Of a stretch of DNA of 62,633 nucleotides, positions 1,312 through 29,296 are shown piece after piece. The notes below the pieces were generated by a model. It saw only the letters and a list, made by a program, of their open reading frames with translations. It did no database searches and was not told the origin of the DNA. Numbering within the stretch: the stretch's first letter is position 1; every line of letters starts with the position of its first letter. Source of the stretch: a bacterium (lineage in GTDB: Bacteria > Hinthialibacterota > Hinthialibacteria > Hinthialibacterales > Hinthialibacteraceae); contig CAXXSM010000099.1 in assembly GCA_963663405.2 (NCBI GenBank), positions 1 to 62,633 of the forward strand, given 5' to 3'. The position numbers were made by a program, and so were the translations under genes.

Positions 1312-1809
1312 AATACTTGCTCCACTTTTCCCAAATTCATAACAATTACCATTCCAATGATCTTATCTCAAAATCAATGAATGGATATGGATTGATATAG
1401 AACTGATTTCCCATTTAAACTGTAAAATTCACAACACAATTGTTGCTAATGGCGGTTGTATTAAGTCTTGTATTCAGAATTCTGGTATTCCAACTCTCTT
1501 CTATATCCAATACCACTGAGTACCCGGAAACTCCAACCAATCGCCAGAGAGGCCGGTGAGAAAATCCAAAGCGAGTGAGGCTCAAGCGGTATACTTTCAG
1601 CATTTTAACGGCGACGGTGGAGAACGACTGATAGAACTTGCAGTCTAGTTTGGTATCCGAGTTTCAATATGCGTTGAACCGGATCGAACTTTGTCCACCC
1701 CAAGCCTATAAGTTCTCTATTCCGCAGGACTGTTAATTGGTACAACCACAATCCTGCGTGTATCCCAGGATCCTAGTCGGTATCAATAGACTCGGCCAGG
1801 ATCGGGAGA

Positions 1810-2271
1810 TCAACAATGCTCTTTATTATATATGCCTGCGAGATCTAAATTCAACAAATGAGGACTTTTTACCAGCTGGGCAATTGTTACGGTTTTCAAG
1901 TAGTTCAATATTAATTGATCGATTTGTGACAGAAAACTTCCCAAAATGCATTGAGAGTCACAACATTCATTATCTCTATTTATAAAACATTGATTCGGTT
2001 TGTACGCTCCTTCTGCTGCTATATAGATATCGAGTAAGGTAATATCTTCCGCTTGCTTATTGAGGCAGTAGCCTCCTGTAGAACCACGATGAGCTTTTAA
2101 AATCCCTTCTTTGACAAGACGTTGATGAATTTTTTGCAGATGATTTGAAGAGACTTTGAGTTTTTTAGCAATGTCCTGTGTTGAAACGCAATACCCCTCA
2201 TTCATTGCCAAAACAAGAACGGTATGCATTGAAAGAAATAGAACGTCTGATACCCAGAAGAAATGCTTCAT
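1810..2271 (-). CDS. Rrf2-family transcriptional regulator with Cys cluster (likely Fe-S binding)
   Basis: HLQKIHQRLVKEGILKAHRGSTGGYCL and ITLLDIY..AEG Rrf2 signatures; C-terminal CFINRDNECCDSQC. Confidence 0.9.
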   Translation of the reverse strand: MKHFFWVSDVLFLSMHTVLVLAMNEGYCVSTQDIAKKLKVSSNHLQKIHQRLVKEGILKAHRGSTGGYCLNKQAEDITLLDIYIAAEGAYKPNQCFINRDNECCDSQCILGSFLSQIDQLILNYLKTVTIAQLVKSPHLLNLDLAGIYNKEHC

Positions 2272-2632
2272 TTTTCTCTCGCCATCATTTGAATGTGGTA
2301 TTTAAATACAAGATTCTTGTCGAGAAGTAACTTGTTGGGTTACATTGTTCATAAGTTCAAATTTTTCAAGATAAGATAACAAACTCTGACGACGTATTAA
2401 TTGATTATCTCAACATTTAAATTCTAAAAGAATTAATATTTATTGATAAAAACAAATCCAATCAACGACTGAAAGAACGCGCAATTTAACATTCGAAATG
2501 TATAACAGAGGACGTACCAGAAGAATGTTAATTATCCTGTAATTGGCGCTATTAGTTAAGCTAAAGTCTCGGTCTATGATTTATTATATCCAATTTAAAT
2601 TCAAATAAAAATAAAAAATAATCACCATTGCA

Positions 2633-2660
2633 TACTATTGGTATTCAAATACCAATAGTA
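2633..2660. promoter_or_regulatory. Perfect 13-2-13 palindrome, putative Rrf2 operator; weaker copy at ~2296-2311
   Basis: TACTATTGGTATT-CA-AATACCAATAGTA between the divergent rrf2 and porin genes; TGGTATT-TA-AATACAA just upstream of the rrf2 start. Confidence 0.65.
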
Positions 2661-2905
2661 GCTCGATTAATAAATTTTCGTTACTACGGAATTTAATTAT
2701 TCTTTTCTTCCTCAAAAAATATCTGGTTGAGAAACGTCAAATTGTTGAATTTGATCTTCTAAATCTCCTAAATCTATGGAGATACGATCATTCAATCTCT
2801 CAAAGTGTTTATTGCAATACACGAATGGCACATTTTATGCATTTATACATTTCTATTTATGTGATTGAGCGCTTTTACAATAATGAGAGAACGGGAGTGT
2901 TTGGT

Positions 2906-4117
2906 ATGAGAAAAATTTTAATATTGTTTGCAGCCGTATTTTTCCCTTTATTCTATGTTCACGGAGAAGAAAAAAGAGTATTTGAAGATTTTCTTCTTCG
3001 AGATTCTTTGCTAGGTGACTGGGGGGGAATTCGCCCGTTTCTGGAAGAAAGGGGTTTGACCTACGAATTGATTTACACTGCCGAGCTGTTTCGGAATGTG
3101 CGCGGAGGAATAAAAACGGGTGGAGAATATCGTGGTGATATCAGTTTGTTCTTAGAGTTGGATACCGAAACCGCCGGATGGTGGGAAGACGGAATGTTTT
3201 TCGTCCATCTACAGGAACAGCATGGATATGGAATAACCAATGATTACGTTGGTGATTTTCAAGTTTTGTCCAATATCGACGCGGATGATTTTTTTCAAAT
3301 ATCTGAAATCTGGTATAGGCATTCTCTTTTTGACGATCGCGCATTCATCAAATTTGGTAAGATGGAAGCCAATGAAGATTTCGCGTTCGTCGAATATGGC
3401 GGAGAATTTATCAATTCGTCACCTGGATTCAGTCCCACAATTCCTTTGGTCACATTTCCCGACCAGGATTGGGGCCTTGTATTTGGCGGACAGCCTGCGG
3501 ATTGGTTTTCAATTAACTTTGGTATCTACCAAGGACGTCCAGATGGCGGCCGTTCAATCGGCGCGACAATCGAAAATCTGTATGGTCCAATGTTGATGAT
3601 CGAGCCAGCGTTTCATTATTCCTTATATGATCATCCAGGTCATTTCCGGATTGGCGGATGGTGGAATGGTGATGAATTTGACAAGTTCGATAGAACTAAT
3701 CCAAATCCTTGTATGTGCAATGAGAGTTATGGATGCTATCTGACCTGGGACCAGGAAATCTGGAAAGAAAATCCAAATAGTGATGATGACGAACAAGGGA
3801 TAGGTCTTTTCGCTCAGTACGGATTTACACCAGAAGATCGTTGTGAAGTCAATCACTACATCGGTGGTGGCGTTCAGTGGATTGGGATGATTCCGAGCCG
3901 AGATGATGATATCATTGGACTGGGAATCTTTCACGTTGATTTTAGTGATGAAGTAGATTTCATTGATGAAGGAGAAACCGCTTACGAACTCTTCTATAAA
4001 TATCAGGCGTTGGGCTGGATGTGTTTCAAGCCTGAGTTGCAATACATTACCAATCCGGGAGGCAACGGCAATGACGACGCTTTGGCTCTGGGCCTGAGAA
4101 TAGAAATTGCATTTTAA
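2906..4117 (+). CDS. oprB: Carbohydrate-selective porin, OprB family
   Basis: Signal peptide MRKILILFAAVFF; LLGDWGGIRPFLEERG N-terminal motif; ETAYELFY...KPELQYITNPGG...GLRIEIAF terminal beta-strand ending in Phe. Start moved from 2825 to the ATG at 2906 (GGGAG upstream). Confidence 0.85.
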   Translation: MRKILILFAAVFFPLFYVHGEEKRVFEDFLLRDSLLGDWGGIRPFLEERGLTYELIYTAELFRNVRGGIKTGGEYRGDISLFLELDTETAGWWEDGMFFVHLQEQHGYGITNDYVGDFQVLSNIDADDFFQISEIWYRHSLFDDRAFIKFGKMEANEDFAFVEYGGEFINSSPGFSPTIPLVTFPDQDWGLVFGGQPADWFSINFGIYQGRPDGGRSIGATIENLYGPMLMIEPAFHYSLYDHPGHFRIGGWWNGDEFDKFDRTNPNPCMCNESYGCYLTWDQEIWKENPNSDDDEQGIGLFAQYGFTPEDRCEVNHYIGGGVQWIGMIPSRDDDIIGLGIFHVDFSDEVDFIDEGETAYELFYKYQALGWMCFKPELQYITNPGGNGNDDALALGLRIEIAF

Positions 4118-7237: not shown

Positions 7238-10200
7238 ATGAATGAAAAAAGGGTACACAAAAGAGATAATAAAGAAGAATTAGACCTTTTGAAATCGCAG
7301 GTTGAAGAACTCGATACCCGGCTAAACAAGTTAGTCGAGATAATCGAAATCCTAAACACCTGCACGCACATAAGAGAATTGGCTCCCCGTTTTTTAACAG
7401 AATTTGCGCGAAACATGACCGCTGAGGGAGGCAGTTTATATCTTCGGGATAATAACAAACTTGTACTCATTAATTCACTCGATCCTGAACATGCCGCGTC
7501 AGTTATTGAATTCCCGCTGAAAAAAGGGAGTGTTTTTGAGCGTGTATTCACTGAAAAAAAACCTGTATTGATTCGAAATATCAAAGAAGAAAATGATCTA
7601 AGTCAAAGCGGCTGGACTGGGTACAGGAATCAATCGGTTATTGCATTTCCATTTTGTGATGAAATAGGGGATGTGATAGGTGTCCTATCGCTCCACAACA
7701 AAACGGCTCCGCCTTTTACAATGCATGACCATCAGATTGGAACCATTCTGTCTTCCATGATCTGCAAATCAATTCGGGAATCGCATGCGAGAAATGAATT
7801 AAAAAAGAGCGAAGAACGATTTCGGCATATGGCCGATTCATCTCCTTTTCCTATATCGATCATCGATAAAGACGGATCTTATCTTTTTCTGAATGAAAAA
7901 TTTATCGAATTGTTTGGATATACACTCAGCGATATCCCCCACGGAAGAACTTGGTTTCAACTGGCCTATCCTGATCCGGAGTACCGCCGCAAGGTCATAC
8001 AGACATGGAAACAAGATCTGGAAAAATGCCCCAATGGATTATTACGGCCACAGGAATATCAAGTCCACTGTAAAGACGGCTCCATTAAAGAGATCTTATT
8101 CCGCCCTGTTACAATGGACGATGGAAAACAATTTATCACATACGAGGACCGGACCGATCAAAATCGCGTTGAATTGGTACGTCAAGAGAGCGAGTCATTG
8201 ATACGGTCGTTGTTAAATACGAGCCCTGATATTTCTTTTTTGATTGATTGCCGTGGTATCTTATTGGCATTAAATGAGACTTTTGCCCAGAGATTCAAAA
8301 AAACGGTTTCTGAACTTATAGGAATGAATTGTTATGATCTTATCCCTCCTGATCTAGCAAAATCCCGGAAAACCCATATTGATGAAGTCATCAATACGGG
8401 TAAACCGGCCTCCTTTATTGATCGGCATCAAGAGCGGTACTTTGAAAATCACATTCATCCCATTAAAAATCCTTATGGAGAAGTGATACAAATTTCGATA
8501 TTTGCGAAAGACATCACGGAAATCAAGCAGACAGAGGAAGCGCTTCGAAATTCAGAAGTACTCTATCATTCTTTGGTGGAACATTTGCCGCAATGTATTT
8601 TTCGAAAAGACAAACAAGGACGATTCACATTCGTCAACCATTGTTTTTGTGAGAATTTGGGTAAATCCGCCGATGAAATTATTGGCAAAACAGATTTTGA
8701 TTTTTTCCCGCAAGAATTAGCATCAAAATATCAGGAAGACGATCAACGGGTTATCGAATCGGGTGAATTATTTCAAACTGTGGAGGAGCACCAAGTAAAT
8801 GATGGTGACAGCAAATACGTTGAGGTTGTAAAAACGCCGATTAAAACTGCCGCTGAACAAATCATCGGCATTCAAGGGATTTTTTGGGATGTCACAGAGA
8901 AAAAAAGGACCGACGAAGACTTGAAACAACACCTGGATGAAATCGAACGTTTAAATCGCTTATTTATTGGACGAGAAAGAAAACTCATTGCTCTTAAACA
9001 GCGTGTTAATGAATTATCGATAAAATCAAACCTTGATCCTCCATATAATCTGGCATCCCTCGAAGAAAGCCTTCAAGATGAAAGCCAATCCATTGCGCAA
9101 TTTCGAAAACCGGATGCTGAAACACTCCCAATCCATGAATATACGTTAAGCGATTTAATTGAAATCGATAGCATGGAATGCCTCCTCAATAGTTTTTGTG
9201 AGTCTGTTGGAATTGCCTCAGCGATAATCGATTTGAAAGGCAATGTTATTATTGGAGCAAGGTGGCAGCCTATCTGCACCAATTTTCACAGGATCAATCC
9301 CATAACATGCGAACGGTGTATCGAAAGTGATACGGTCTTAGCAGGGAATGTGAAAGAAGGAGAGCATTTCTCAATTTATCAATGCAGAAACGGTCTCACT
9401 GATGCTGCATCTCCAATTTATATTGCTGGACGCCATGTGGCGAATGTGTTTGTCGGACAATTTCTAACTGAACCTCCTGATTATGATTATTTCAGAAACC
9501 AAGCGCTAGAATACGGCTTTGATGTTCATCAATACCTAAAATCACTAGAACAAGTTCCAGTCATTGATCAAGAAAAATTACCATCAATTCTTAGGTTTTT
9601 AACAACCGTATCTGAACTGGTTGCTCAAATAGGTTTAGAAAAAATCCAATTGAAACAATCTGAATCGGCAGAAAGAAATCGCGCCTTAGAATTGGATTTC
9701 CTTATTCGTGAGTTAAAACAACAGCGTTTGGCGGCTCTTAACCTGGCAGAAGAGGCAGAAGAGGCTCGCATAAAAACAGAGCAATCTGAAAAGGCGCTGC
9801 AAGAAAGCAATTTTCTTGTAAACGCGCTTTTTGATTATGGGAATATAGGTCTTGCTATTACGTCTCCACAAAAAGGCTGGATTCGCGTTAACCGCAAATT
9901 ATGTGAGATGTTTGGGTATTCTGAAAATGAATTCTATCAGCGTACCTGGGTTGAGATGACTCATCCCGAAGATTTAGAAACCGACGTATTACAATTTAAC
10001 CGGTTACTGAATGATGAAATCGATAATTATGAAATGGAAAAACGTTTTTATAACCAAGATGGTTATATTGTTTATACATATTTAACAGTTTCTTGCTTCC
10101 GGAATGAGGATCGTTCCGTTCGCTTTGTTATCGCTTCACTATTGAATCTTACCAAATTGAAAGAGAGTGAAGAAGAATTAAACAAGACGCGTGGTTTACT

Positions 10201-12586
10201 CGAGGCGGCTATCGATCAATCCCCTGCCGGAATTCTGATCGCGGATGCGCCTGATGTCCGGATTCGGAGCGTCAATCCCGCCGCTCTTGGAATTCGTGGA
10301 GATAGCAATGTTTCTCTTACGGATATTCCCATGGAATTCCATCCGCAGAATTGGCAAATTTTTCACTCCGATGGCACGCCATGTCAACCAGAGGATCTTC
10401 CCTTAACACGAGCGATCCTATACGGGGAGACTACTCACAACGCAGAATTTATCATCCGTCGTTCGGGCAGTGAAGACCGGTATATACTGGCGACGGCTGC
10501 GCCTGTAAGAAACACCAATGGAGATATTGTAGCTGGTGTTGTTGTTTTTCCGGATATCACGGACCGAAAACGTGCCGAAGAAACAATAGAAAAAAACGAA
10601 AAAATCTACCGGGAAGCCATCGAGGCGGCAGGAGCAGTAGTTTATTATCAAAACTATGAGACGAATCAATACGATTTCATGAGTCCCGGTATAGAAAAAT
10701 TATTGGGTTGTACATCTAAAGAAATCACTCCTGATATGTTTTATTCATTAGAAAGAGAGTCGATTCTTACAGGAGAACTGGCAGGATTATCTATAGATGA
10801 AGCCATCCAAAAAGCAAGGGAAAAAGGATTGTCATGGAAAGCCGATTATAGAATGAATAAAAAGACAGGAGAGGAAATATGGTTATCAAATTCCGCCGTA
10901 CAGGTAAGAGATGAAGGAGGAGAAACAATTGGTTCTCTTGGCATTTTGATTGATATTACGGATCGAAAAAGCACGGAAAACGCTCTCCTCCAGAGTGAAG
11001 AACGATATCGTCTCTTTCTGGCCAACAGCACGGAAGGCATTTGGCGTTATGAGGGAGATCAACCTGTTTCAATTGCCCTTCCGGCCGACGAACAAATCGA
11101 ACAAATTTTGCAGTACGGTTATATGGCTGAATGCAATGATGCACTGGCCCGTATGTACGGTTTTGATCACGCAGAGGAGATTATCGGCCTGAGTTTGAGG
11201 GACATGACAAGTGACGATCCGAAAAATTTGGAGAACTTGCGAACTTTCATTCAATCAGGTTATCGGCTAATAGACTCCGAGACCTTCTCCAAAGACAGGG
11301 AGGGAAAAATACACTACTTTTTGAACAGCTTTGTCGGAATAATAGAAAAAGATAATTTAGTACGGGCATGGGGAGTTCAGCGCGACATCACCGAGCGTAA
11401 ATATGCAGAAGAAGAGAAAGCCAAACTGGAAAGACAACTACGACAATCACAAAAAATGGAGGCGATTGGTCAATTGACTGGAGGTATCGCACATGATTTT
11501 AATAATCTATTGCAAGTGATCAATGGATATACTGATATGGTATTGAGCAGCCTTCCTGACGGTGAACAATCTCATTCCTACTTGAAAGAAGTTGCCAAAG
11601 CTGGCGAACGAGCGGCTATTCTTGTAAACCAATTGCTTACTTTCAGCAGACGTCAGTTGATGAAGGCGGAAGTGATCAATCTGAATGACATAATTGCCGA
11701 TTTCGTAAAAATGATCAGTCGGGTAATTGGTGAACACATTCGTCTAGATTATGTTCCCGGTTACCATCTTGGCATGTGTTATGCCGACCGTGGAATGATG
11801 GATCAAGTATTGATGAATCTATGTGTTAATGCCCGGGATGCCATGCCGGACGGAGGAATCCTTACGATTGAAACTAAAAATGTACTAATCGATACAGAAT
11901 ATTGTGAAATTTATCCTTATTCTATACCGGGACAGTATGTTTTACTCAACGTCACAGATACCGGATGTGGAATGAATGAAGAAATCCGGTCAAAAATTTT
12001 TGAACCATTCTATACAACCAAAGAAGCGGGGCATGGAACAGGTTTGGGATTGTCTACGGTATACGGTATCGTCAAACAGCATAACGGCATAATCCAGGTA
12101 TACAGTGAACTAGGAAGTGGTACAACATTTAAGATTTATTTGCCGGTCTACGAACAGCTCGCAACAACAGTGGGAAGAAAAGTGGAAGAAACTAGTACCG
12201 GTGGAACAGAAACGATCCTGTTGGCCGAAGATGATGAAATGGTGCGCAATCTGGCTAAAAAATTTCTTGAATCTGCCGGTTACAAGGTATTGCCTGCAAA
12301 GGATGGTGAAGAGGCCGTCCGATTATTTTATGAACATTCCGATGAAATTGCTTTGTTGATTTTTGATGTAATTATGCCCAATCTGGGGGGGCAAGATGCA
12401 TATGAAAGAATACAAAAAAATAATCAAGCAATCAAAATTCTTTTCGCAAGCGGCTATAGTGAGAATGCAATTCACACGAATTTTGTCATAAAAGAAGGTC
12501 TCCAAATTATTCAGAAACCCTATAACCGGAATCAATTATTGAGTCGTATCCGGGAGATACTTGATAAGGATAAAAAATTCAATTGA
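7238..12586 (+). CDS. Cytoplasmic hybrid sensor histidine kinase (GAF, multiple PAS, PocR, HisKA, HATPase, receiver)
   Basis: QSQKMEAIGQLTGGIAHDFNNLL H-box; NLCVNARDAM N-box; DTGCGM and GTGLGLS G-boxes; ILLAEDD receiver; PocR-like CTNFHR..CRNGLTDAASPI; repeated PAC DITE/DITD motifs. Confidence 0.95.
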   Translation: MNEKRVHKRDNKEELDLLKSQVEELDTRLNKLVEIIEILNTCTHIRELAPRFLTEFARNMTAEGGSLYLRDNNKLVLINSLDPEHAASVIEFPLKKGSVFERVFTEKKPVLIRNIKEENDLSQSGWTGYRNQSVIAFPFCDEIGDVIGVLSLHNKTAPPFTMHDHQIGTILSSMICKSIRESHARNELKKSEERFRHMADSSPFPISIIDKDGSYLFLNEKFIELFGYTLSDIPHGRTWFQLAYPDPEYRRKVIQTWKQDLEKCPNGLLRPQEYQVHCKDGSIKEILFRPVTMDDGKQFITYEDRTDQNRVELVRQESESLIRSLLNTSPDISFLIDCRGILLALNETFAQRFKKTVSELIGMNCYDLIPPDLAKSRKTHIDEVINTGKPASFIDRHQERYFENHIHPIKNPYGEVIQISIFAKDITEIKQTEEALRNSEVLYHSLVEHLPQCIFRKDKQGRFTFVNHCFCENLGKSADEIIGKTDFDFFPQELASKYQEDDQRVIESGELFQTVEEHQVNDGDSKYVEVVKTPIKTAAEQIIGIQGIFWDVTEKKRTDEDLKQHLDEIERLNRLFIGRERKLIALKQRVNELSIKSNLDPPYNLASLEESLQDESQSIAQFRKPDAETLPIHEYTLSDLIEIDSMECLLNSFCESVGIASAIIDLKGNVIIGARWQPICTNFHRINPITCERCIESDTVLAGNVKEGEHFSIYQCRNGLTDAASPIYIAGRHVANVFVGQFLTEPPDYDYFRNQALEYGFDVHQYLKSLEQVPVIDQEKLPSILRFLTTVSELVAQIGLEKIQLKQSESAERNRALELDFLIRELKQQRLAALNLAEEAEEARIKTEQSEKALQESNFLVNALFDYGNIGLAITSPQKGWIRVNRKLCEMFGYSENEFYQRTWVEMTHPEDLETDVLQFNRLLNDEIDNYEMEKRFYNQDGYIVYTYLTVSCFRNEDRSVRFVIASLLNLTKLKESEEELNKTRGLLEAAIDQSPAGILIADAPDVRIRSVNPAALGIRGDSNVSLTDIPMEFHPQNWQIFHSDGTPCQPEDLPLTRAILYGETTHNAEFIIRRSGSEDRYILATAAPVRNTNGDIVAGVVVFPDITDRKRAEETIEKNEKIYREAIEAAGAVVYYQNYETNQYDFMSPGIEKLLGCTSKEITPDMFYSLERESILTGELAGLSIDEAIQKAREKGLSWKADYRMNKKTGEEIWLSNSAVQVRDEGGETIGSLGILIDITDRKSTENALLQSEERYRLFLANSTEGIWRYEGDQPVSIALPADEQIEQILQYGYMAECNDALARMYGFDHAEEIIGLSLRDMTSDDPKNLENLRTFIQSGYRLIDSETFSKDREGKIHYFLNSFVGIIEKDNLVRAWGVQRDITERKYAEEEKAKLERQLRQSQKMEAIGQLTGGIAHDFNNLLQVINGYTDMVLSSLPDGEQSHSYLKEVAKAGERAAILVNQLLTFSRRQLMKAEVINLNDIIADFVKMISRVIGEHIRLDYVPGYHLGMCYADRGMMDQVLMNLCVNARDAMPDGGILTIETKNVLIDTEYCEIYPYSIPGQYVLLNVTDTGCGMNEEIRSKIFEPFYTTKEAGHGTGLGLSTVYGIVKQHNGIIQVYSELGSGTTFKIYLPVYEQLATTVGRKVEETSTGGTETILLAEDDEMVRNLAKKFLESAGYKVLPAKDGEEAVRLFYEHSDEIALLIFDVIMPNLGGQDAYERIQKNNQAIKILFASGYSENAIHTNFVIKEGLQIIQKPYNRNQLLSRIREILDKDKKFN

Positions 12587-12623
12587 CAATTTTAATGAGA
12601 ACACAAGCTATATTGAACGAAAG

Positions 12624-12658
12624 AAGGAGTAAACAAGTGAAGAATTGACTCCTTTTTT
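12624..12658 (+). terminator. Probable intrinsic terminator after the kinase
   Basis: AAGGAGTAAA...TTGACTCCTT stem followed by a T-run. Confidence 0.45.
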
Positions 12659-12823
12659 GTCCATCACTTTTCCATTTACTAATTGAATATCGATAATATG
12701 ACGCCGCGGCAAAAAGTTAGCAGAAAAAAGTATGTAAATATGGCTGAAACTGGCAAGTAATTCTTGAAAGAACTATCATGTAAGTGTATACTTAAATTGT
12801 ATAAATTTAATGCCTAAGGTTGA

Positions 12824-14487
12824 GTGATGTTCCGAATTGATGACAATCAGCAAGGCTCTTTGATCGATCCGTTTGACTACCTCGGGCCCAAGCGGAAAGA
12901 ACTCCTGAACTCAGGTTGGGCCGGTGTTTTCCAGCCCAACATAATTGATAAACTCCCTGTCGACGCGATCCAATCCAATTTCAATTCTCAGATGGGACGG
13001 CCGACCAAAGAAATCCGGACGGTCCTCAGTGTGCTTATCTTGCAACAGCTGTTCGACCTGACCGATCAAGAGACGGTCCGCCAGTTTGCCTTTAACACCA
13101 AATTAAGTTGTAAAACTATGTCTGGGAGGACAAAACGATCAAGAGACGGTCCGCCAGTTTGCCTTTAACACCGAATGGCATTATGCGTTGAACATCCGTC
13201 TGGAAGATGATGATTCAAAATATCTGTGCGAACGTACATTACGAACCTACCGTGTGCTCGCGACGGAGTTAAAAATCGATACGATACTCTTCCGGTCGTT
13301 GACCGATGAACTGCTGACCAAACTGAATATCCCCACGAAAAAACAGCGCTTGGATTCCACACACATTCGATCCGACATGCGGCGCTTAAGCCGACTGGAA
13401 TTGTTCCTCAAAACAATTCAAAAATTCTTGAATGTCATGCGCAACGAGCACAAGACTCTGCTGAACAAGAGAGTGGACAGCGAACTGATCGAGCGGTATC
13501 TGGGGAAGAAAAACGGGTATTTTGGGCAGCTCAAGCCCTCGGAAGCTCAAGCCGCTCTGCAGCAAGCGACCGAGGATTTACTGGTGTTGGTGGAGACCTT
13601 TCGCAAATATCGCAAGATCCGGGGGATGGCAGTTTTCCGCCTATTGCAACGTGTGCTTGACGAACAATGTCATGTCAGCGGCGAAGGGGAAGACGTGAAG
13701 GTGGAAGTGAAAAATCCCAAGGAGGTTTCGTCCGACAGTCTGCAGAATCCTTCGGACGAGGACGCGGGGTATAGCGGTCATAAAGGGCAGGGGTATCAAG
13801 TTCAGTTGATGGAAACATGCCAGGACGAGACGGCCGATGACGAATCAGCGGCGCCAAATTTGATTACTTACATTAACGTGGAACCGGCGAATTGCAGTGA
13901 CAGCGACGCGGTACGGCCTGCCATTGAAGAGACGAAAGAGCGGGGCTGCGCGCCGGAAGAGTTGTTGGCCGATAGTCTGTATGGAAGCGACGAGAACGTG
14001 CAGAAGGCGGCGGAAGAAGGAGTGGACTTGATCGCTCCTACGATGGGGAAACCGAAAAGCAAAGAGACCAAACTCATCTTGGACGATTTTACGGTCGATG
14101 AAGAAACGGGGGAAGTGACGTCGTGTCCCGCCGGGGAGGCGCCGTGTGAAATCCAGCGCGGGAAAGACGATGAATTGAAAATTTACTTTGATCCAGAAGT
14201 CTGCGCCAACTGTGAACATCATGACTATTGCAGCGTGGGAATGAACGCGGAATGTAAGTTGGAATACACGCCGAAGCAATTGCGATTGGCGCAACGGCGT
14301 GTGGCGGAGGAGTCGGATGAGTTTCGGGAAAGGTACCGGTTGCGTTCGGGGATTGAAGCCCTGAACGCGAAACTGAAACGAACACTGGGATTGGGGCGCT
14401 TGCGAGTGAGAGGGCTGGCGAGAGTGGCGCTTCGCGGTTATGCTGAAAGCGCTGGGTTGGAACATCATTCAGGCGGCGCGGGCGTGA
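12824..14487 (+). pseudogene. DDE transposase (DUF772-type N-terminus) disrupted by a 73-bp insertion and a 1-bp indel near 14426
   Basis: GRPT..LILQQLFDLTD, RLDSTHIRS, SLQNPSDEDAGY, LLADSLYGS, YRLRSGIEALN. Removing 73 bp joins 12824 and 13188 in frame (FAFNT|EWHYALNI); the likely true end RFAVMLKALGWNIIQAARA* lies in another frame. Confidence 0.85.
13063..13172. repeat. 37-bp exact direct repeat flanking a 36-bp unrelated insert
   Basis: CGATCAAGAGACGGTCCGCCAGTTTGCCTTTAACACC at 13063-13099 and 13136-13172; insert AAATTAAGTTGTAAAACTATGTCTGGGAGGACAAAA at 13100-13135. Confidence 0.95.
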
Positions 14488-17288
14488 AAAGCCCCGTTTT
14501 CGGCCTTTTTCGACGTGAGAACCATACTGAAGGCTGTCAAAACATACATTCGAAATCCGGTTCTTCAGAATTTATGATAGACACGTTTGCACAGGGCATG
14601 AGAAACTAGTTTTTCGGTCATAATCAAAATCCGGACTTTTTACCGGGGTGTCTTATAAGGAAAAAAAGGATTTTCATAATCAAAACAGTTGTACTTGACA
14701 AGAATCTTGTATACTCCCTTTCTATTTAGGAGTATTTGGCAATCACAAAATGGTCAAATCATGGCTTTTCGAGAGGATCAAAAAACGATTTGTTGTGAAA
14801 ACGTTGTAATTCGAAAATATTAAATTCTAAAGATCAATAATATCAAATATTTAAGACGTTGAGTACGCGGATGCAAAATACGTATACTTAAAAATATAAG
14901 TCATTTAAAATAAGTATGTTATGAACTGCGAAATTGAATAGATTGCTAAAATGATTACTATAGAGATGAGTCTTTATAGATCGATATGAGCCCAATATAA
15001 AATCTTTTGGCTATCAGATCCTGCTTGATGATGATCTTTATAATAAATCATAATAATGCATTGGAGCCTTCTTATATGTCCACTTTACATCTCTCCAATA
15101 AGTCTTTTTAGTTCTAGATTATCGATTATGATTTCAGACTGTAATGATGGACCACCATTCTGTACGACACAGAGAATAGGCATATCTGGATTTTGAGTAT
15201 CAAATAGACCTCCAATTGATAATGTATGTGGTTGTCCACTTGAGAGAGACAAGTACGAGTTGTATATAAACATACCAACATCTGTATAACCGTTTGTCAT
15301 TACAAGCGCGGTTGTACCTTCTGGTCCATTAACTAATTGCGATTCGACAGACGCTTTTATGAATTGGGGAAAACCATCCTGTAATTGGCTTGCGAATACC
15401 CCTATATTAGCTGCGATGTCTGATTCATCAATAGAGAGAAGAATTTGTTTCCCTCCTTCATCATCAGGAATTAGCAGAGCTTCCCCACTATCTCCGTTTA
15501 CATTTGAAATCATCTCAGTCGTATCCAGATCAAAAGAGCCATCGATATCCAAAGTATTCTCTTCATAATTGTCAGTCGATAATGGACGTATCTCCAAGTT
15601 ATCGATGTATACTTGGACTCCTGTAATCGCGGATTCTAGAGCAACAACCTGTATGGCTGGTTGCACAATATCGTTAGGAGGATCGTACAAAAGAATCAGT
15701 TTTTTCCATTCTCCTACAGGGACATCCGGGCCTGTAACGAGTGTATAGCCTAATTGTCCATCGATAGGTGAATTGAGACCGACCAGCCCGATTGAACAAT
15801 TCATGGTATTGGCTTGAATCCATACGGATATCAACACCAAATCCTGGTTAACTTTTACTGGTGAATTCAGTATTGTTAAAATGCCTTCTTGCGGTAAAGC
15901 ATCAACGATATATCCTATCCCATCTGTTCCAATTCCTTGAGGCAATTCACCTACGTATATACTCGCTTGTTCGTATCGAGAAACAGGACTAACGCTGAAA
16001 TCATTAATATCCTCAAATTCTTCACTTAAAAATATTGAAGTTGGAGTAGGAGTCGGTGTTGGTAAAGTTGGTTCTGGTATTGTAGAAGATACATTGAATA
16101 CAGAAACATCCATTATATTATTGTTGAGATCAAATTCATTTTCATCGGTTGAAGGTGTAATCACGATATAAACATCCCTTGAATCCATTCCTTCCAATAA
16201 AATTTGTTGAGGATTAATCATGAACGGTATATCGATCAGCATATCTGGTGCAAGTGTTGGTAATAACACGCTATTCAGCGTCTCACCATCCGAAGAATCA
16301 AGATGAAATGTAATATTAGCATTACTCGACGATACAACACCCTGATTGACCACTGTTGCGATAATCATACTTGCTTCGGATGTAACACGTTCCACACGAG
16401 CGGAACCTACAATAAGATCTGGAAGCATCATTGTATAAAGCGCACTTCCTAATTGTTTCGAGACTAAGTCCAAATTATTACTCTCCACTAAGATTTTAAT
16501 AGTATGAGGAAAATCATCCATGGGAGTTTCCCAGTTAACAATCGCTACATGTGAAGCGTCAGTAATTAACGGATGAGGAATTGCGATTGTCTCAATTATT
16601 TTATTATTGTTTGTATCAATAAATGAAACATGAATATCTTCCTCTATAAAATCTCCTGTATTCTCAAGTGTTGTCGTTATTTGCACATTTGTACCTGGTG
16701 CGGGATTGAGAGGATCAAGTTGTATCGATTCAGGAAGAACTGTGATTTCATGCTTTAATTGACATTCACGGACACGGAGATTTGTTTGACTAACAATCGG
16801 TATATTTGGAATCATCTTCGGTCCTGATTCAAAAACAACTTCTTCTGTGGTGTAACGAATTTCTGAGCCGTGATAAGCAATTAAAGGCAAACCACTTTCT
16901 TGCATGGCAATCGTGGATAGACTTTTACGTTCTTTGTCATTCGTTAATTGTCGAGGAGAAGACCATGCGTCATGCGAACGATCGTATAAACAGCAAAAAA
17001 CATCATTCTCATCCAATGTAGAGGCTGTATATGATAATATTAGTTGTCCCTCCTTTGAACGTGATAGATTGAGATCGGAAACACTAGATTCTCTTGCGTT
17101 CGAAATCAGAATTCTGGGTGAATCTAGCTGATATCCACGTACCTCAACTATATCTCCATCTTTCATCCATGTAATCACAGGTTCCTGTCCATCAAAAATG
17201 ATTGCAGGTATCGTATCTGGCACATCATCGAAGGTCAATTGCACAGATTCTTCCCATATACGATTTCTATAGTGAATAGCAAATAATT

Positions 17289-19271
17289 GCCTCTTCGCTA
17301 TTTCATGTGGGTAGAGGGTAGAACCTCGAGAAGATTACATTCCAATTTTCCTCTGCCAAACAGATGGTTACGATCAACTTGTAGACGTTTCGATATCTGT
17401 TAAGCGACAAGTATTTTGCAGTAGGATTGCCCTCCATCGATCCGTTTGCGGGTCTGGATTTTATCGAAGAAAAAAGAACCATATCTTTATGTGCCGCATG
17501 CTTGTGGAGTCTGTGGTCAGGCGCCTCAATAATCTTTCTCATTCCCCCTAATCTTTCGCAGGTGGCTGTCCAAATCTTGTGGGCAAACCGGCAGGAACTT
17601 TCTCTTCTCACCCAGAGTATCGGCGGTTTGTCCATAAGATGGCAGAATCCACAAGCCCTCACTCGTTCGGATTACTGATCATGAATCGCAGACCGGAGAG
17701 ACTCAGCCGGTTTCATCCGGTGTCTTTTGCTTAGTTTGGCGGCTTGCCTGCAGAAACGGGAACGATTCAAGCCGTATTACTATTTCGTGTGGGGCGAGGG
17801 AAGAACCTTGGGAAGATTGAATTCCAACTTGCTTCCAATCAAATAGATGGTAGTGATTAAATTGTTGACGTTGCGATAGCCTCTCGCACGGGCCTTGGCG
17901 GCTTGGATCAGGCTATTCATCCCCTCCAACAGACCATTGTTGATTCGCGAAGTAAACCAACGCACCACACCAGCCCAGTGCTCCTTGATCGTTTTCGCGG
18001 CCTTGATCATAGGCTCAATCCGGCTGTGAGTCGCCCAATAATACCACTTTTTAAGAAACGATTCCCCCTCCTCCGGATCGTCGAACGAAAACACGTCTTG
18101 GAACACGGATCGCAGATGGTAGGCTTTCACCGTCTTCAATTTGCTCCCTCGTACATCTTGAAAAATTTCGTTCCGTTTCTTCTCTTGCTTGTCCGTGAGA
18201 TTCCATTCATTCTTCAGCCAAATATACTTCGTCCCCTTCAATAATTCGGGATAAATCGCTTGGTCTTGTTTGCGCACTTCGTCCACAGCTTGATTGATAA
18301 TCCTCATCAGGTGGTATTCATCAAATGTCATTTCGGCGGCCGGGAAATTGGCTTCAATCCCGGATTGAAACGCCTGGGACATATCCAAACAAAATTCCTC
18401 CACCTGCTCCGCCTTTCCGTTATGCGTCTCTAAATCCTCTTTGAACGCCCCCACCGTTTGAGCGTCCTTTCCATCGGTGGCAAACATCACGCTGCGCTCG
18501 TCCAAATCCATGAATACGCTGACATAATTGTGCCCTTTGGCCTTTGAGGTCTCATCCACCCCCACCGCCTTCACTCCCGAAAAATCCTCCCTCTCTCGCG
18601 CGTCCATCACATAATGAGTCAGCACTCGCCAAATCAGCGTGTCATATTCTCCGACCACTCGGCTGATCGCATTGGCCGTCATCCCATTCTCCGCCAGTGC
18701 CATGACCAACGCTTCAAATAACAACGTAAATCCCGCCCCCGGACGGGCCCAGGGAAGATTCACTGTCTTGACTTTATGATTGGGACATTTCACACGAGGT
18801 TGCCGGGCGTGTAAATACGTCTCATACTGAAAGAAATTCAGATGCCTCCAAGTGCGTCGTTTCGTATCATGCACTCCACACAGGTTCCCGCATTCGGGAC
18901 AGGGAAACAGACTCCCCTCGGGAAAGTCCAGCGTGAGGTGCAAGGTTTTTTCTTCCTCAGGAAACTCGGCCTGGACGACCTGCCATGGCTCACTCAAACC
19001 TAACGCTAACCGGAATAATTCTTGGTTCTTCATTCTCTTCCTTCTCTCTCTCTCTCTCTCTTGGGATTGGGATCTTTGCCTTTAGCCTGGGCGGAGGATC
19101 GGACCTTGCGGGGACGCGAACTGAGTGCTGACCAAGAAGACTGTCGAAGGACGGTCTAGCACCGCCCTTCTTGTTAGTTTATCTCGTCGGGATTGGTACG
19201 TAAGCGATATATCTTCGGGAGGATGGAGGAAAGCCTTCCCCAAATCTACCCACTCGATTCAGCGAAGAGCC
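17289..19271 (-). mobile_element. ISL3-family insertion sequence with 8-bp target duplication AAATAATT
   Basis: Ends GCCTCTTCGCTATTTCATGTGGGTAGA and (reverse complement) GGCTCTTCGCTGAATCGAGTGGGTAGA; AAATAATT at 17281-17288 and 19272-19279. Confidence 0.95.
17780..19033 (-). CDS. ISL3-family transposase (intact frame)
   Basis: CPECG..HD..RTWRHL zinc finger, VGVDETS, CLDMSQAF, FDEYH, NGLLEGMNSLIQAAKARARGYRN. Confidence 0.95.
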   Translation of the reverse strand: MKNQELFRLALGLSEPWQVVQAEFPEEEKTLHLTLDFPEGSLFPCPECGNLCGVHDTKRRTWRHLNFFQYETYLHARQPRVKCPNHKVKTVNLPWARPGAGFTLLFEALVMALAENGMTANAISRVVGEYDTLIWRVLTHYVMDAREREDFSGVKAVGVDETSKAKGHNYVSVFMDLDERSVMFATDGKDAQTVGAFKEDLETHNGKAEQVEEFCLDMSQAFQSGIEANFPAAEMTFDEYHLMRIINQAVDEVRKQDQAIYPELLKGTKYIWLKNEWNLTDKQEKKRNEIFQDVRGSKLKTVKAYHLRSVFQDVFSFDDPEEGESFLKKWYYWATHSRIEPMIKAAKTIKEHWAGVVRWFTSRINNGLLEGMNSLIQAAKARARGYRNVNNLITTIYLIGSKLEFNLPKVLPSPHTK

Positions 19272-26580: not shown

Positions 26581-28896
26581 TTATGGAGAAGACAACAGAA
26601 GTTCGCTTGGAATTTCTGTTCCCTCTTCGATAAAGTGAATTTCGAGCCTGTCAAAATAGACGCGCGAGGAACTAGTATCTCCCGTGGCTGCAATCTGCAA
26701 AACGGGTGTTATGGTCTCACCGGAATCCGGTTCGTACAGCAGTACGAGCGTTCGTTCCCGCTCAATAAAACTGGCGGCGGTGGCGGGAATGTGCGTCGCG
26801 ATCGAACTGTCCATGTTTTCTCCCGAAAAATAATCCCCTTTCAACACGGCCAGCGCAACACTGACATCCGGATGGTCCGCGCGCACTACGGCGCGTAAAA
26901 TCGCCGCTCTGCCGCGCATGTGCACCGGAAAAGTTGTCATAACAAATGCGACCTCCCCTGGATCGACGGTCATCATCATACCTCGCCCGTCACTTGATGA
27001 AGGAATCCAATCCGTCAACTCAACGAAAGAGACTTCGCCGCCGGGTTGAGTGCTGAATCCACCGGGAATGAAGAACCACCCGTTATCTTCTAGTGAGGGC
27101 TGGTCGAATTCGAAAACCACGGGTCCTGAGGGGGGAATAGTTGGCGCCGTTGGAGGGGGAATGGTTGGCAGTGAGGTAGGAATGGGGGCAAGGACAGCGG
27201 TTCCACGAACAGTCTTTGATTCAAAATAGTCTCCATGATGAGGCGGTATCCCGAGTGGCAGGCGGCCGAAATTGAAATTGACGATTTCTTCGTCTGTCCC
27301 TGCGACTTGCGGTTCGTACCGCACAATCACCATCACGGAGCCACCGGGTGAGATATCCGCTCCAAGCCCTTCCACAATACTGAATGGCGCTAAGGTCCAC
27401 GGTTCAACCGACCAACCGCCCTCTCCTGGATTTTCCAAAAGAAACACCAGCTCACGGAATTCCCCGATCGTAACCTCGCCAAAGTCGATTTCATCAGGAG
27501 TTATTACGATCTCAAATGGGAACGGTGGTTCAACTGTTGGTGAGGAAATTGGTGTCGGTATGGGTGTGGGAGGAATCGTTGGCGTGGGCTTCTCACCTTG
27601 AAACTCATATGCGCCAATATCATAGCCCTTTCCCTGTGGACGATTTCTTCCCAGAATGTCTGTGATGGGCATGACAATACCAGGCACAACATCGGTTCCA
27701 GCATCGATACAGGCGGAATTCGGCTGAAGATCGTAATTACCTTTATCCGCATTGATAAATTCAGGATCTTCACTAATATTTTCCCATGCTTCTTTCAACA
27801 TGATATTCATCGTCTTTGGATGAGGGATGCCATAGTTCCCTTCATCGATGTAAAATTGCTCCGCGTTATCCCAAAATAGATTGAACATTACATGAGGATC
27901 ACTGTTTTCGTCAATTTCATAAATGGCGCTGCTGCTATTCCCCTCATTATCTACCGCTCCCGCAATTACGCAGTTTGCAATTGTGCAGTTTGGACCTTCC
28001 ACGGCAATTGTTCCTCTTTCCGCTGTGTTTCCAATTAGAGAGCAGCCAATGAGTGTTGAATGTCTATCGGCAAGAAGCCCACCTCCTGCTCTATCAGAGG
28101 TGTTTCCAGCAATTAAATTGTTAATGAGCACATATGTTCCATTGCCATAAATGCCTCCACCATTTCCCTCTGCTGAATTATTGATTATTCTATTTCCTGC
28201 TATCAAGGCATCCGATGCATATAAATAGATCCCTCCACCCCCATATCCGTAACTGCTTTTCTTAGTTCTATTTTCCTCTATTGTGTTTTCTGTAATTGTA
28301 ACCGTAGCAATGTTTGAGCAAATTCCGGCTCCAAAAGTACCTTCACCTTGATTGAAATTCTCTCTGATTGAGTTACGATTGATAATGGCTTTTGCATCGT
28401 CAATGACAATTCCAATCCCATTGTTCACTATTGAACAATATTCGATTGTTATCTCTTTTTGGCTGCTCTTTGCAAGTATCCCATAGCCTTGCTGTGTGAA
28501 ATGTTTGATTGTCAGATTAGATATATTGATGGGATTCGGATTTCCAGTAATATAGATAACAGTGTTCGATGTGTTTTTTGCTTCGATTATGACATCTGTG
28601 GCTTCTGTACCAATCAGGGATATTCCTAATGAAAGGTCTATAGGGAAATCTTCCCGAAAACCAAACTCATCCGGTTCATCAGTGTATGTGCCTGGAGCCA
28701 AATGGATAATATCTCCGGCTTGCATCTCCACCTGCCTTATTGCAACCGTGATATGCCGGTACGGATATCCTTGGCTTCCATCTCCATCAATATTGTCTCC
28801 ATTCACTGCGTCGACGTAATAATCCCTCGCCTCTGCTTGTGATACGCATAGGAGAATCAACACACCAGTAAATAATAAACAATAACGACAGTTCAT
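26581..28896 (-). CDS. Tandem paralog of 24000-26393
   Basis: Same architecture with near-identical segments (ARDYYVDAVNGDNI, FNFGRLPLGIPPHH, SIATHIPATAASFIE). Confidence 0.8.
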   Translation of the reverse strand: MNCRYCLLFTGVLILLCVSQAEARDYYVDAVNGDNIDGDGSQGYPYRHITVAIRQVEMQAGDIIHLAPGTYTDEPDEFGFREDFPIDLSLGISLIGTEATDVIIEAKNTSNTVIYITGNPNPINISNLTIKHFTQQGYGILAKSSQKEITIEYCSIVNNGIGIVIDDAKAIINRNSIRENFNQGEGTFGAGICSNIATVTITENTIEENRTKKSSYGYGGGGIYLYASDALIAGNRIINNSAEGNGGGIYGNGTYVLINNLIAGNTSDRAGGGLLADRHSTLIGCSLIGNTAERGTIAVEGPNCTIANCVIAGAVDNEGNSSSAIYEIDENSDPHVMFNLFWDNAEQFYIDEGNYGIPHPKTMNIMLKEAWENISEDPEFINADKGNYDLQPNSACIDAGTDVVPGIVMPITDILGRNRPQGKGYDIGAYEFQGEKPTPTIPPTPIPTPISSPTVEPPFPFEIVITPDEIDFGEVTIGEFRELVFLLENPGEGGWSVEPWTLAPFSIVEGLGADISPGGSVMVIVRYEPQVAGTDEEIVNFNFGRLPLGIPPHHGDYFESKTVRGTAVLAPIPTSLPTIPPPTAPTIPPSGPVVFEFDQPSLEDNGWFFIPGGFSTQPGGEVSFVELTDWIPSSSDGRGMMMTVDPGEVAFVMTTFPVHMRGRAAILRAVVRADHPDVSVALAVLKGDYFSGENMDSSIATHIPATAASFIERERTLVLLYEPDSGETITPVLQIAATGDTSSSRVYFDRLEIHFIEEGTEIPSELLLSSP

Positions 28897-29024
28897 CTTT
28901 ATCCTCCCGAATTTCTTACGCCAAAGTCGCTAAAATTGTTTTACTGCGACCTATCAGCGTTGAATTTGTAGAATCGATAGCCATTGCGTCTCGATTCGGT
29001 TTATCTAGGATTTCAATTTTTCCC

Positions 29025-29128
29025 AAAATAACATATCCAATAGAGATGTCAACAGTATATTGCTCAAGAATTTCTCATTCCAGATAATGAATTTTTTTCT
29101 TGACAACGGAATTTCTCTAATGAATAAT
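29025..29128. promoter_or_regulatory. Divergent sigma70-like promoters for the two surface-protein clusters
   Basis: + strand TTGACA(29100)-17 bp-AATAAT; - strand TTGACA(29052)-16 bp-TATTTT with extended TG. Confidence 0.45.
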
Positions 29129-29296
29129 TGCTTTAAAATCTGAATTGTATTTATACAAATACTGTGACTTAAGAAAAAATTTCATTATTTTGATGCTGCA
29201 AAATACTATTTTTTGGAGATCGCATTATTTTGATCTGATTGCAAAATTTACCATAATTTTTGCATTTAAAACACATCGGAGATCGAGTAGGTCAAT

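Follow-up and report, generated by a model that had tools for sequence, protein, structure and literature searches.

The locus examined here poses the question of how the transposase gene of an insertion sequence (IS) came to carry two exact copies of part of its own coding sequence on either side of a short segment of quite different composition. The preliminary description of the window, by which we mean the whole 62,633-nucleotide stretch of DNA that was analysed, had attributed this arrangement to the host adaptation complex, which was thought to have put a spacer into the IS and inactivated it.

Structure of the Scar and Its Effect on the Transposase Frame

The exact 37-bp duplication around a 36-bp insert that had been reported earlier was confirmed, in that the 37-mer was found exactly twice in the window, its two starts lying 73 bp apart (Table 1), and two matches to it were present in none of 100 dinucleotide shuffles of the window. 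The likeness of the two copies extends over 41 nt with one mismatch, within which the exact part is 37 nt, and the base preceding the 37-mer is C at one copy and A at the other. The 36-bp insert was single-copy in the window, with up to three mismatches allowed, as well as in the 8.44-Mb assembly, on which its uniqueness was judged and beyond which 18% of the genome is unassembled. Its GC content of 30.6%, as opposed to 54% in the duplicated 37-mer and 50% elsewhere in the IS, bore out the view that the insert is AT-richer than its surroundings. Upon folding, it gave just two weak stems of 4–5 bp (−3.8 kcal/mol). Slippage or tandem duplication was rejected as the origin of this structure, the 36-bp insert being unlike the flanks or any other sequence of the genome.

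Across the genome, 27 isolated exact direct repeats (at least 20 bp, periods of 40–120) were detected, and the scar alone among them combined a 36–37-bp duplication with a 32–38-bp insert; the count of scar-like events from this direct-repeat scan is therefore one. A wider scan, for 28-mers that occur twice inside 5 kb, returned mostly paralogous domains and CRISPR arrays and was uninformative on insertions with long target duplication.

The IS measures about 1955 bp with the 73-bp insertion and about 1882 bp in its absence. Its termini are imperfect inverted repeats, and a flanking repeat of roughly 4 bp was seen at one of the three copies of this IS in the host. Since the insertion comprises 3 × 24 + 1 bases, the reading frame is shifted after codon 92, a position inside the DUF772 match, which starts at residue 58, and full-length transposase would thus no longer be made by this IS copy. 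Conversely, an in silico join skipping the 73 bp yielded one open frame of 570 codons, as had been claimed. The transposase carries a further defect: compared with the C164 copy, it has a 1-nt extra G near 14433 that scrambles its last ~60 codons. The assertion that the insertion inactivated the IS is accordingly plausible in view of the frameshift after codon 92, but has to be tempered by this separate 1-nt frame break, which may have arisen before or after the insertion.

Table 1. Features of the IS copy that carries the duplication (positions in the window).
Feature	Position	Strand	Remarks
IS element with DUF772 + DDE_Tnp_1/DDE_Tnp_1_6 transposase, IS5/IS1182-like	12698..14652	+	Pfam matches; ends set by similarity to the C164 and C1 copies
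Truncated 5′ transposase ORF, 114 codons	12824..13168	+	Native to codon 92, then insert and second copy out of frame
Target duplication copy 1, exact 37 bp	13063..13099		Adjoins upstream IS sequence; 13063–13098 in the type I-G reading
Spacer-length insert, 36 bp, 30.6% GC, unique	13100..13135		13099–13135, 37 bp, in the type I-G reading
Target duplication copy 2, exact 37 bp	13136..13172		Adjoins downstream IS sequence
Downstream ORF with DDE catalytic domain, 473 codons, +1 frame	13188..14609	+	Tail scrambled by the extra G near 14433

Absence of the Insertion from Other IS Copies

If the 73 bp had been acquired by this copy, the site was expected to be empty elsewhere. Both of the other site-spanning copies in the genome (C164 and C1) were indeed seen at base level to have the 37-mer once and to lack the insert. 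The same held for all four site-spanning copies found in relatives (G014, G017, G010, and G015), where the alignment pieces abut or overlap and leave no gap of 73, a result taken from alignment coordinates rather than from base-by-base alignment. In sequencing run X3, one contig joins 13062 to 13136. Runs X1, X2, and X3 carry only diverged relatives of the IS, with small word shares, and are uninformative on the habitat or on this strain.

CRISPR-Cas Modules of the Host and Their Dimensions

The proposal further depended on the host having cas1 and cas2 together with arrays of approximately 37-bp repeats and 36-bp spacers. The genome was found to contain three adaptation modules, of types I-C, I-G, and I-E, cas1 being present at three loci and cas2 being found at two of them. 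The type I-C module (C103) encodes a full-length open Cas4, Cas1c (483 bits, cut-off 385), and Cas2, while the type I-G module (C75) encodes a Cas4-Cas1 fusion (771 bits, cut-off 560) and Cas2; the Cas proteins of these two loci all exceed the curated cut-offs.

Arrays of the anticipated dimensions were associated with both modules. In type I-C, the 37-bp repeats were identical in all 93 units, and the 90 spacers of 32–36 bp were mostly of 34 bp (42) or 33 bp (33), followed by 35 bp (8), 32 bp (4), and 36 bp (3), so that spacers of exactly 36 bp are rare in the host I-C array. In type I-G, the repeat is 36 bp long, its base 36 being G in the seven leader-proximal units and C in the six distal ones, and the 12 spacers measured 37 bp (6), 36 bp (4), or 38 bp (2); together with the 36-bp repeat, these lengths result in a modal period of 73. 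Among the 12 loci closest by Cas1c (56–62% identity), all eight detectable arrays had 37-bp repeats and 33–37-bp spacers, and in one of them 36-bp spacers accounted for 14 of the 44 tallied. As to base composition, spacers with a GC content of 30.6% or below made up 12% of the I-C and 8% of the I-G spacers, which places the insert inside both distributions.

Given these repeat and spacer sizes, the scar can be read either as an exact 37 + 36 for type I-C or as 36 + 37 plus one chance base for type I-G, the chance-identical base needed by the latter having a probability of about 0.28 by simple arithmetic. As the preliminary description was made with no knowledge of the host repeat lengths, the agreement in size serves as an independent confirmation. 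The type I-E system (29/32 bp) and two cas-less repeat clusters, C41 (31/35) and C102 (38/31), were rejected as sources of the scar on account of their dimensions. At E values up to 1e-4, the I-C and I-G spacers had no match in the genome other than in their own arrays.

Likeness of the Target to the Native Repeats

The 37-mer had been expected to resemble the host repeats in part; the resemblance seen was marginal, and neither comparison gave a convincing similarity. The type I-C repeat matched the target at 10 of 37 positions, a score that was equalled or surpassed by random genomic sites with a frequency of P = 0.67, and the type I-G repeat matched at 15 of 36 positions (P = 0.08) in the best of four configurations, namely the 36-bp register of the minus strand. 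The positions shared with the I-G repeat include the bases at the junction (cg|GT.T), the final G, and a TTGA that is equally distant from the 3′ end in both sequences, although this likeness at the borders and the TTGA was noticed post hoc.

The new repeat also differs from the native ones in folding. Its minimum free energies of −2.2 kcal/mol (plus strand) and −4.8 kcal/mol (minus strand) are weaker than the mean of shuffled sequences, whereas the native repeats form 8-bp stems and reach −8.6 and −10.2 kcal/mol. A repeat lacking a hairpin points to a scar rather than to a working array. The designation of the locus as a neo-CRISPR is therefore an overstatement for what is one repeat-spacer-repeat unit with such a repeat.

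Proposed Origin of the Scar

The observations proper, namely how the scar is built, that its site is empty where the IS occurs elsewhere, and which adaptation modules of what dimensions the host has, support the original proposal of integration by the host adaptation complex. The scar thus probably arose when the host Cas1-Cas2 carried out a full-site spacer integration away from its canonical target, which frameshifted the transposase.

What follows is inferred, as regards the enzyme and the derivation of the insert from foreign DNA as well as the effects on the IS. A processed prespacer of 36–37 bp would have been captured by the host Cas1-Cas2, and two transesterifications on opposite strands, 36–37 bp apart, would have taken place inside the transposase gene of the IS copy. 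Gap filling would then have duplicated the intervening target, leaving a repeat-length copy, a spacer-length insert, and a second repeat-length copy, with a net gain of 73 bp. The adaptation modules would need to have been active at the time of insertion. The integrase may have been supplied by the type I-C module at C103 (Cas4, Cas1c, and Cas2; 37-bp repeat), with the scar read as 37 + 36, or by the type I-G module at C75 (Cas4-Cas1 fusion and Cas2; 36-bp repeat), with the scar read as 36 + 37 on the minus strand including one chance-identical base; the chances of the two are roughly even. Because the new repeat has no hairpin and is little like the native repeats, crRNA processing of the unit is unlikely, and the scar would be inert.

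A bolder version of this proposal regards the scar as the natural first step in the birth of a CRISPR array on a mobile platform. In such a case, a relaxed-target integrase, possibly the I-G Cas4/1-Cas2, would have acted on a site sharing just the border bases with the repeat, and the resulting unit might be extendable by further acquisitions or mobile; as a variant, the recurrent disabling of IS copies by off-target adaptation might act as an unrecognised brake on transposons. We consider this version speculative and highly improbable.

Alternative Explanations

Among the explanations other than spacer integration, a Cas-independent origin survived best, and we judge it unlikely. According to this explanation, the event began with either a staggered double-strand break or template switching during replication, repair by fill-in captured a short filler, and the CRISPR sizes are coincidental. 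Insertions whose target duplications are long and differ in size (30 to over 400 bp) and which lack identifiable mobile-element genes have been described in several bacteria (PMC2853133), and the insert studied here was not tied to adaptation by any protospacer or PAM, neither of which was found for the 36-mer. Exact scans of viral, metagenome, and genome contig collections, to which diverged protospacers are invisible, returned no match, and BLAST searches against phages and plasmids gave chance-level partial matches only (E of 4–5). On the other hand, the insert is unique in the assembly, and the documented cases carry kb-sized gene cassettes instead of 36 bp (PMC2853133). A Cas-independent event predicts neither a duplication equal to the I-C repeat (37 bp) or within one base of the I-G repeat (36 bp), nor an insert length inside both spacer ranges.

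The same comparison can be made with insertion with long target duplication (ILTD) as a class, which has been described for kb-sized restriction-modification cassettes (Nobusato et al., 2000; Furuta, Abe and Kobayashi, 2010; PMC2853133). As far as it is characterised in these reports, ILTD shares with the scar a target duplication of more than 30 bp and an insert with no mobility gene, but differs in that the scar insert has 36 bp and its duplication is equal or nearly equal to the host CRISPR repeat. Assignment of the scar to this class was rejected, since its 37-bp duplication falls within the defining range of at least 30 bp, whereas a kb-sized cassette is replaced by 36 bp devoid of a gene (PMC2853133).

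An artefact of assembly or sequencing, in which a graph loop or a chimeric read would have produced a 73-bp unit that the chromosome does not contain, or that only a minor subpopulation carries, appears quite unlikely. Such an artefact is favored by the shallow coverage of the organism, whose word depth is only about 2–2.7 in X7, the sole strong holder, and by the signs of error elsewhere in the assembly, namely the 1-nt indel in the same IS and a cas3 gene broken over several ORFs. Support for the insert at the level of reads comes from contigs of this one run: in the Logan contigs of X7, the bin 13103–13133 was covered at a word depth of 2, with 2–2.7 in the exact-match flanking contigs. Because X7, which holds 0.85 of the sampled words, is possibly the assembly's own source, it does not amount to independent support. 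Nevertheless, Logan's separate k = 31 assembly of X7 contains words of the insert (13103–13133) at a depth equal to that of the exact-match flanks. Furthermore, the insert is a 36-bp novel sequence with IS sequence on both sides rather than a 1-base indel, and 36 bases that are found nowhere else in the genome cannot have been invented by an assembler. X7 also has a loose end at 13136, where 13 letters are identical to the sequence upstream of copy 1; this end could represent an empty-site allele or could equally be derived from the C1 paralogue.

The footprint or remnant of a mobile element with a long target duplication, the 36 bp being its leftover ends, or a tiny non-autonomous element, is highly improbable. 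Unusually long duplications do exist, for example the 19–26 bp of IS1630 (cited in PMC2853133), and the C1 copy of the IS studied here has a separate ~2-kb insertion with a 16-bp overlap between its flanks. However, no inverted repeats were detected in or around the insert (0 pairs), and the 37-bp duplication is far above the roughly 4-bp flanking repeat of the host IS. We know of no transposon with a 37-bp duplication. The possibility, raised earlier, that the 36-mer is the end of another element was likewise contradicted in this genome and in 19 family genomes: no second 36-mer was present in either, at up to three mismatches in the family genomes (0 matches), or by exact match in three public contig collections.

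Finally, a genuine functional mini-CRISPR array on the IS, used by the host or by the element, is scarcely credible in spite of its repeat-spacer-repeat geometry and host-like dimensions, given that the "repeat" belongs to the transposase coding sequence, occurs a single time in every other copy, forms no stable hairpin as opposed to the 8-bp stems of the native repeats, and is only 27% (10/37) to 42% (15/36) identical to them.

Comparison with Known Off-Target Integration

The formation of neo-CRISPR units by non-canonical Cas1-Cas2 integration was reported by Nivala, Shipman and Church (2018, Nat Microbiol 3:310), as described in a citing preprint (bioRxiv 10.1101/148544) and in further citing articles (PMC7054753, PMC11788318, PMC6698737, and PMC6546382). 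According to that preprint, the in vivo experiments employed overexpressed Cas1-Cas2 of the E. coli type I-E system, and "circumstantial evidence" was presented for two other species. The present scar resembles the units described there in having a spacer-length fragment outside arrays, a repeat-length duplication, an integrase-encoding genome, and a possible gene disruption. It differs in being natural, in residing in a draft genome of an uncultured type, in consisting of a single unit, and in its link to a Cas4-containing I-C or I-G module with 36–37-bp repeats.

Off-target integration as such is thus already known, both from overexpressed E. coli Cas1-Cas2 and in vitro, while natural cases are barely documented; within the literature searched, the "circumstantial evidence in two other species" of the 2018 paper, as worded in the citing preprint, was the only mention of natural off-target spacer integration. 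From a clean natural case it would follow that adaptation modules also misfire when expressed at native levels and that their product is able both to reach fixation and to break genes. The scar would moreover provide a real off-target sequence for the Cas4-containing I-C or I-G integrases, whose target rules have been little studied, and a template for genome scans addressing how costly CRISPR adaptation is in terms of mutation and how often new arrays might originate.

As to the target rules, the Cas1-Cas2 of Pyrococcus furiosus, which has a 30-bp repeat, was described to catalyze full-site integration in vitro at non-CRISPR sites of plasmids, and the off-target sites had G/C borders and 43% identity to the repeat, with matches clustering at the junction and in the repeat's 3′ part (PMC6698737). 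The event proposed here would have in common with that system a pair of attacks, one on each strand, separated by one repeat length, and a partial likeness to the repeat at the borders (PMC6698737). Compared with the 43% given for P. furiosus (PMC6698737), the scar target is 42% identical to the I-G repeat with both borders matching, a level that is not significant (P = 0.08).

For the type I-G (formerly I-U) Cas4/1-Cas2 of Geobacter sulfurreducens, a predominant spacer length of 36 bp, TTN PAMs, and integration at the leader-repeat junction have been described (PMC6547450). The host I-G module is in accordance with it in possessing a Cas4-Cas1 fusion and Cas2, and the spacer length is near both the 36–38 bp of the host and the 36/37-bp insert (PMC6547450). 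In contrast to the leader-repeat junction used in G. sulfurreducens (PMC6547450), the site of the scar is a transposase gene.

Structure of the scar in the IS transposase

The preliminary description of this region had reported a 37-bp duplication around an AT-richer 36-bp segment, and this anatomy was confirmed: the two 37-bp copies are exact direct repeats, and the insert between them has 30.6% GC, lower than the repeat (54%) or the IS around it (50%). Allowing up to three mismatches, the window has two occurrences of the 37-mer and a single one of the 36-mer, versus no such matches in shuffled sequence. The insert, for which only weak structure was predicted, was also single-copy across the assembly, a draft of 8.44 Mb in 170 contigs (46.9% GC, estimated completeness 82%) of which the window is one entire contig. 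The further claim that removal of 73 bp restores the transposase frame likewise held, in that a scripted join without these bases yielded a single open frame of 570 codons. One additional G at ~14433 relative to the copy on contig C164 scrambles the C-terminus (last ~60 codons), and is either a further mutation in this copy or an error in the assembly.

All contigs were scanned for isolated exact direct repeats of at least 20 bp with periods of 40–120. Among the 27 detected, this scar alone combined a 36–37-bp repeat with a 32–38-bp insert; the other 26, as judged from their sequences, were tandem tRNA pieces, intergenic repeat families, and protein repeats.

Features of the interrupted IS, the host CRISPR-Cas loci, and other repeats (C99 is the window; the other contigs belong to the host draft genome, with locus labels in brackets)
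Feature	Contig	Coordinates	Description
IS	C99	~12698-14652	~1.95 kb; imperfect terminal inverted repeats; transposase DUF772 + DDE_Tnp_1/DDE_Tnp_1_6
5' transposase ORF	C99	12824-13168	114 codons; 5' part of split gene
First 37-bp copy	C99	13063-13099	
Insert	C99	13100-13135	36 bp
Second 37-bp copy	C99	13136-13172	
Downstream transposase ORF	C99	13188-14609	473 codons; +1 frame
Tandem repeat	C99	49463-49712	63-nt period; 3.6 copies
Type I-C system	C103		cas3 (several ORFs), cas5c, cas8c, cas7c, cas4, cas1c, cas2, then array
I-C cas3	C103 (L007)	1480-3708	HD domain 192 aa, helicase core 347 aa; small ORFs between and after
I-C array	C103 (L007)	~9652-19120	93 identical 37-bp repeats; three blocks, split by insertions of 1562 and 1433 bp
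ISL3-family transposase ORF	C103 (L007)	16419-17714	in second array insertion
Type I-G system	C75		cas3g, cas8g2, cas7g, csb2, cas4-cas1 fusion, cas2, 13 repeats
I-G repeat units	C75 (L008)	16093-17002	base after 35 invariant: G in seven leader-proximal units, C in six distal
Type I-E system	C147		29-bp repeat; 32-bp spacers
CRISPR-like cluster	C41 (L012)	13426-14660	31-bp repeat; 35-bp spacers; 18 units
CRISPR-like cluster	C102	6626-7301	38-bp repeat; 31-bp spacers; 8 units
Interrupted IS copy	C1 (L011)	~28132-30170	broken by ~2 kb; flanking alignments share 16 bp of IS (query 1125-1140)

Empty sites in other IS copies

The prediction that other copies of the IS should be without the 73 bp was borne out by both of the other site-spanning copies in the host genome, located on C164 (~92% identical) and C1 (~91–93% identical), each of which holds a single 37-mer and no insert. 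Among 40 genomes from outside the host genus, searched together with the host's own, four relatives (G014, G017, G010, and G015) carry a site-spanning copy on one contig, and in all four the alignment pieces, as read off coordinates rather than aligned, overlap by 25–40 nt with no 73-nt gap. In addition, a contig from the rhizosphere metagenome run X3 joins 13062 straight to 13136. The C1 copy is interrupted elsewhere, and the 16 bp shared by its flanking alignments suggests that another element may have entered there and duplicated a 16-bp target; a portion of this interruption recurs 4.3 kb away.

CRISPR-Cas systems of the host

The host genome was found to contain cas1 at three loci and cas2 matches at two. 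The 90 I-C spacers are mostly of 34 (42) or 33 bp (33), with fewer of 35 (8), 32 (4), and 36 bp (3). The split I-C cas3 reflects either degraded interference with intact adaptation genes or single-base assembly errors. The ISL3-family element shows that an IS landed in an array of the same genome whose IS holds the spacer-like insert. In the I-G array, the G/C split at the 36th base looks like a mutation that was duplicated along with the repeat in successive acquisitions, so the repeat is 36 bp; the split also gives the polarity of the array. With this repeat, the 12 I-G spacers measure 37 (6), 36 (4), or 38 bp (2), with a modal period of 73. Adaptation genes accompanied by arrays of fitting size, as expected for a Cas-mediated origin, were present.

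The 12 closest Cas1c loci (56–62% identity) came from MAGs labelled Elusimicrobia, Bryobacterales, Gemmata, Urbifossiella, Planctomycetaceae, and Planctomycetota. Arrays were detected by script at eight of them, all with 37-bp repeats sharing a common 3' end motif and with spacers of 33–37 bp, in line with the lengths measured in the host. Four distant loci (32–38% identity) have 36-bp repeats with an I-G-like 3' end and spacers of 35–38 bp.

Proposed origin of the scar

The anatomy, the empty sites, the intact-looking adaptation genes, and the matching array dimensions support, without proving, the proposal that the scar probably arose by full-site off-target integration by the host Cas1-Cas2. 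In this mechanism, Cas1-Cas2, with Cas4 in either module, would integrate a presumably foreign prespacer at a non-CRISPR site, and two staggered joins 36–37 bp apart followed by gap repair would duplicate the target. We infer this catalyst, as well as the timing of the event and its effect on the IS, from those observations. No protospacer source was found: exact scans of viral, metagenome, and genome contig collections returned nothing, BLAST against phage and plasmid sequences gave partial matches at chance level only, and no match with up to three mismatches occurred in 19 family genomes.

Read as 37 + 36, the duplication equals the I-C repeat length exactly; 36-bp spacers are rare in the host I-C array (3/90) and common in a sister system (14 of 44 tallied). 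Read as 36 + 37, the scar has the modal I-G period, and requires one chance-identical base (probability ~0.28 by our own arithmetic). The target shares 10 of 37 positions with the I-C repeat, a level that a random genomic site reaches 67% of the time. With the I-G repeat, the best of four configurations (minus strand, 36-bp register) gave 15 of 36 shared positions (P = 0.08); these include the leader-repeat junction, a TTGA equally far from the 3' end in both, and the final base. This likeness is no more than suggestive, and is comparable to the 43% identity reported for a favored off-target site of Cas1-Cas2 from P. furiosus (PMC6698737). Judged by dimensions, array size, and likeness of the target to the repeats, the I-C and I-G origins are inseparable and stand near even.

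The most serious rival is an insertion that makes a long target duplication without Cas proteins (PMC2853133). However, the insertions described there are kb-sized cassettes, and such a process does not predict the match to host repeat and spacer lengths. An assembly artefact would be favored by the low depth: in run X7, whose contigs contain 0.85 of the sampled words and cover 30/30 bins, 13103-13133 has a word depth of 2, and the exact-match flanking contigs have depths of 2–2.7. Nevertheless, an artefact is unlikely, since the 36 bases are unique in the assembly and were kept by a second assembler. This support is at the contig level rather than from raw-read mapping, and X7 may be the assembly's own source, so that it amounts to a second assembler on possibly the same reads, not independent confirmation. 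A transposon footprint is disfavored by the lack of inverted repeats and of further insert copies in the assembly and the 19 family genomes.

Off-target integration by Cas1-Cas2 corresponds to the phenomenon of Nivala et al. 2018, a study cited as giving 'circumstantial evidence' in two other species; no further natural case was found in the literature covered, which excludes most subscription journals and all supplements. On this reading, the scar is a well-controlled natural case of an already known phenomenon, of particular value in that the host's own arrays can be measured and fit it. The minimum free energies of the duplicated target (-2.2 and -4.8 kcal/mol) are weaker than the average for shuffled sequences, whereas the two native repeats form 8-bp stems (-8.6 and -10.2 kcal/mol); as this neo-repeat does not fold, no crRNA is expected.

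Other repeats

Two further CRISPR-like clusters were observed, on C41 and C102; for the former, no cas family was detected in the five largest of the eight non-nested ORFs (120 aa or longer) beside it. The core of the 63-nt tandem repeat in the window recurs, again as short arrays, on five or more further contigs (C27, C55, C92, C138, and C149).
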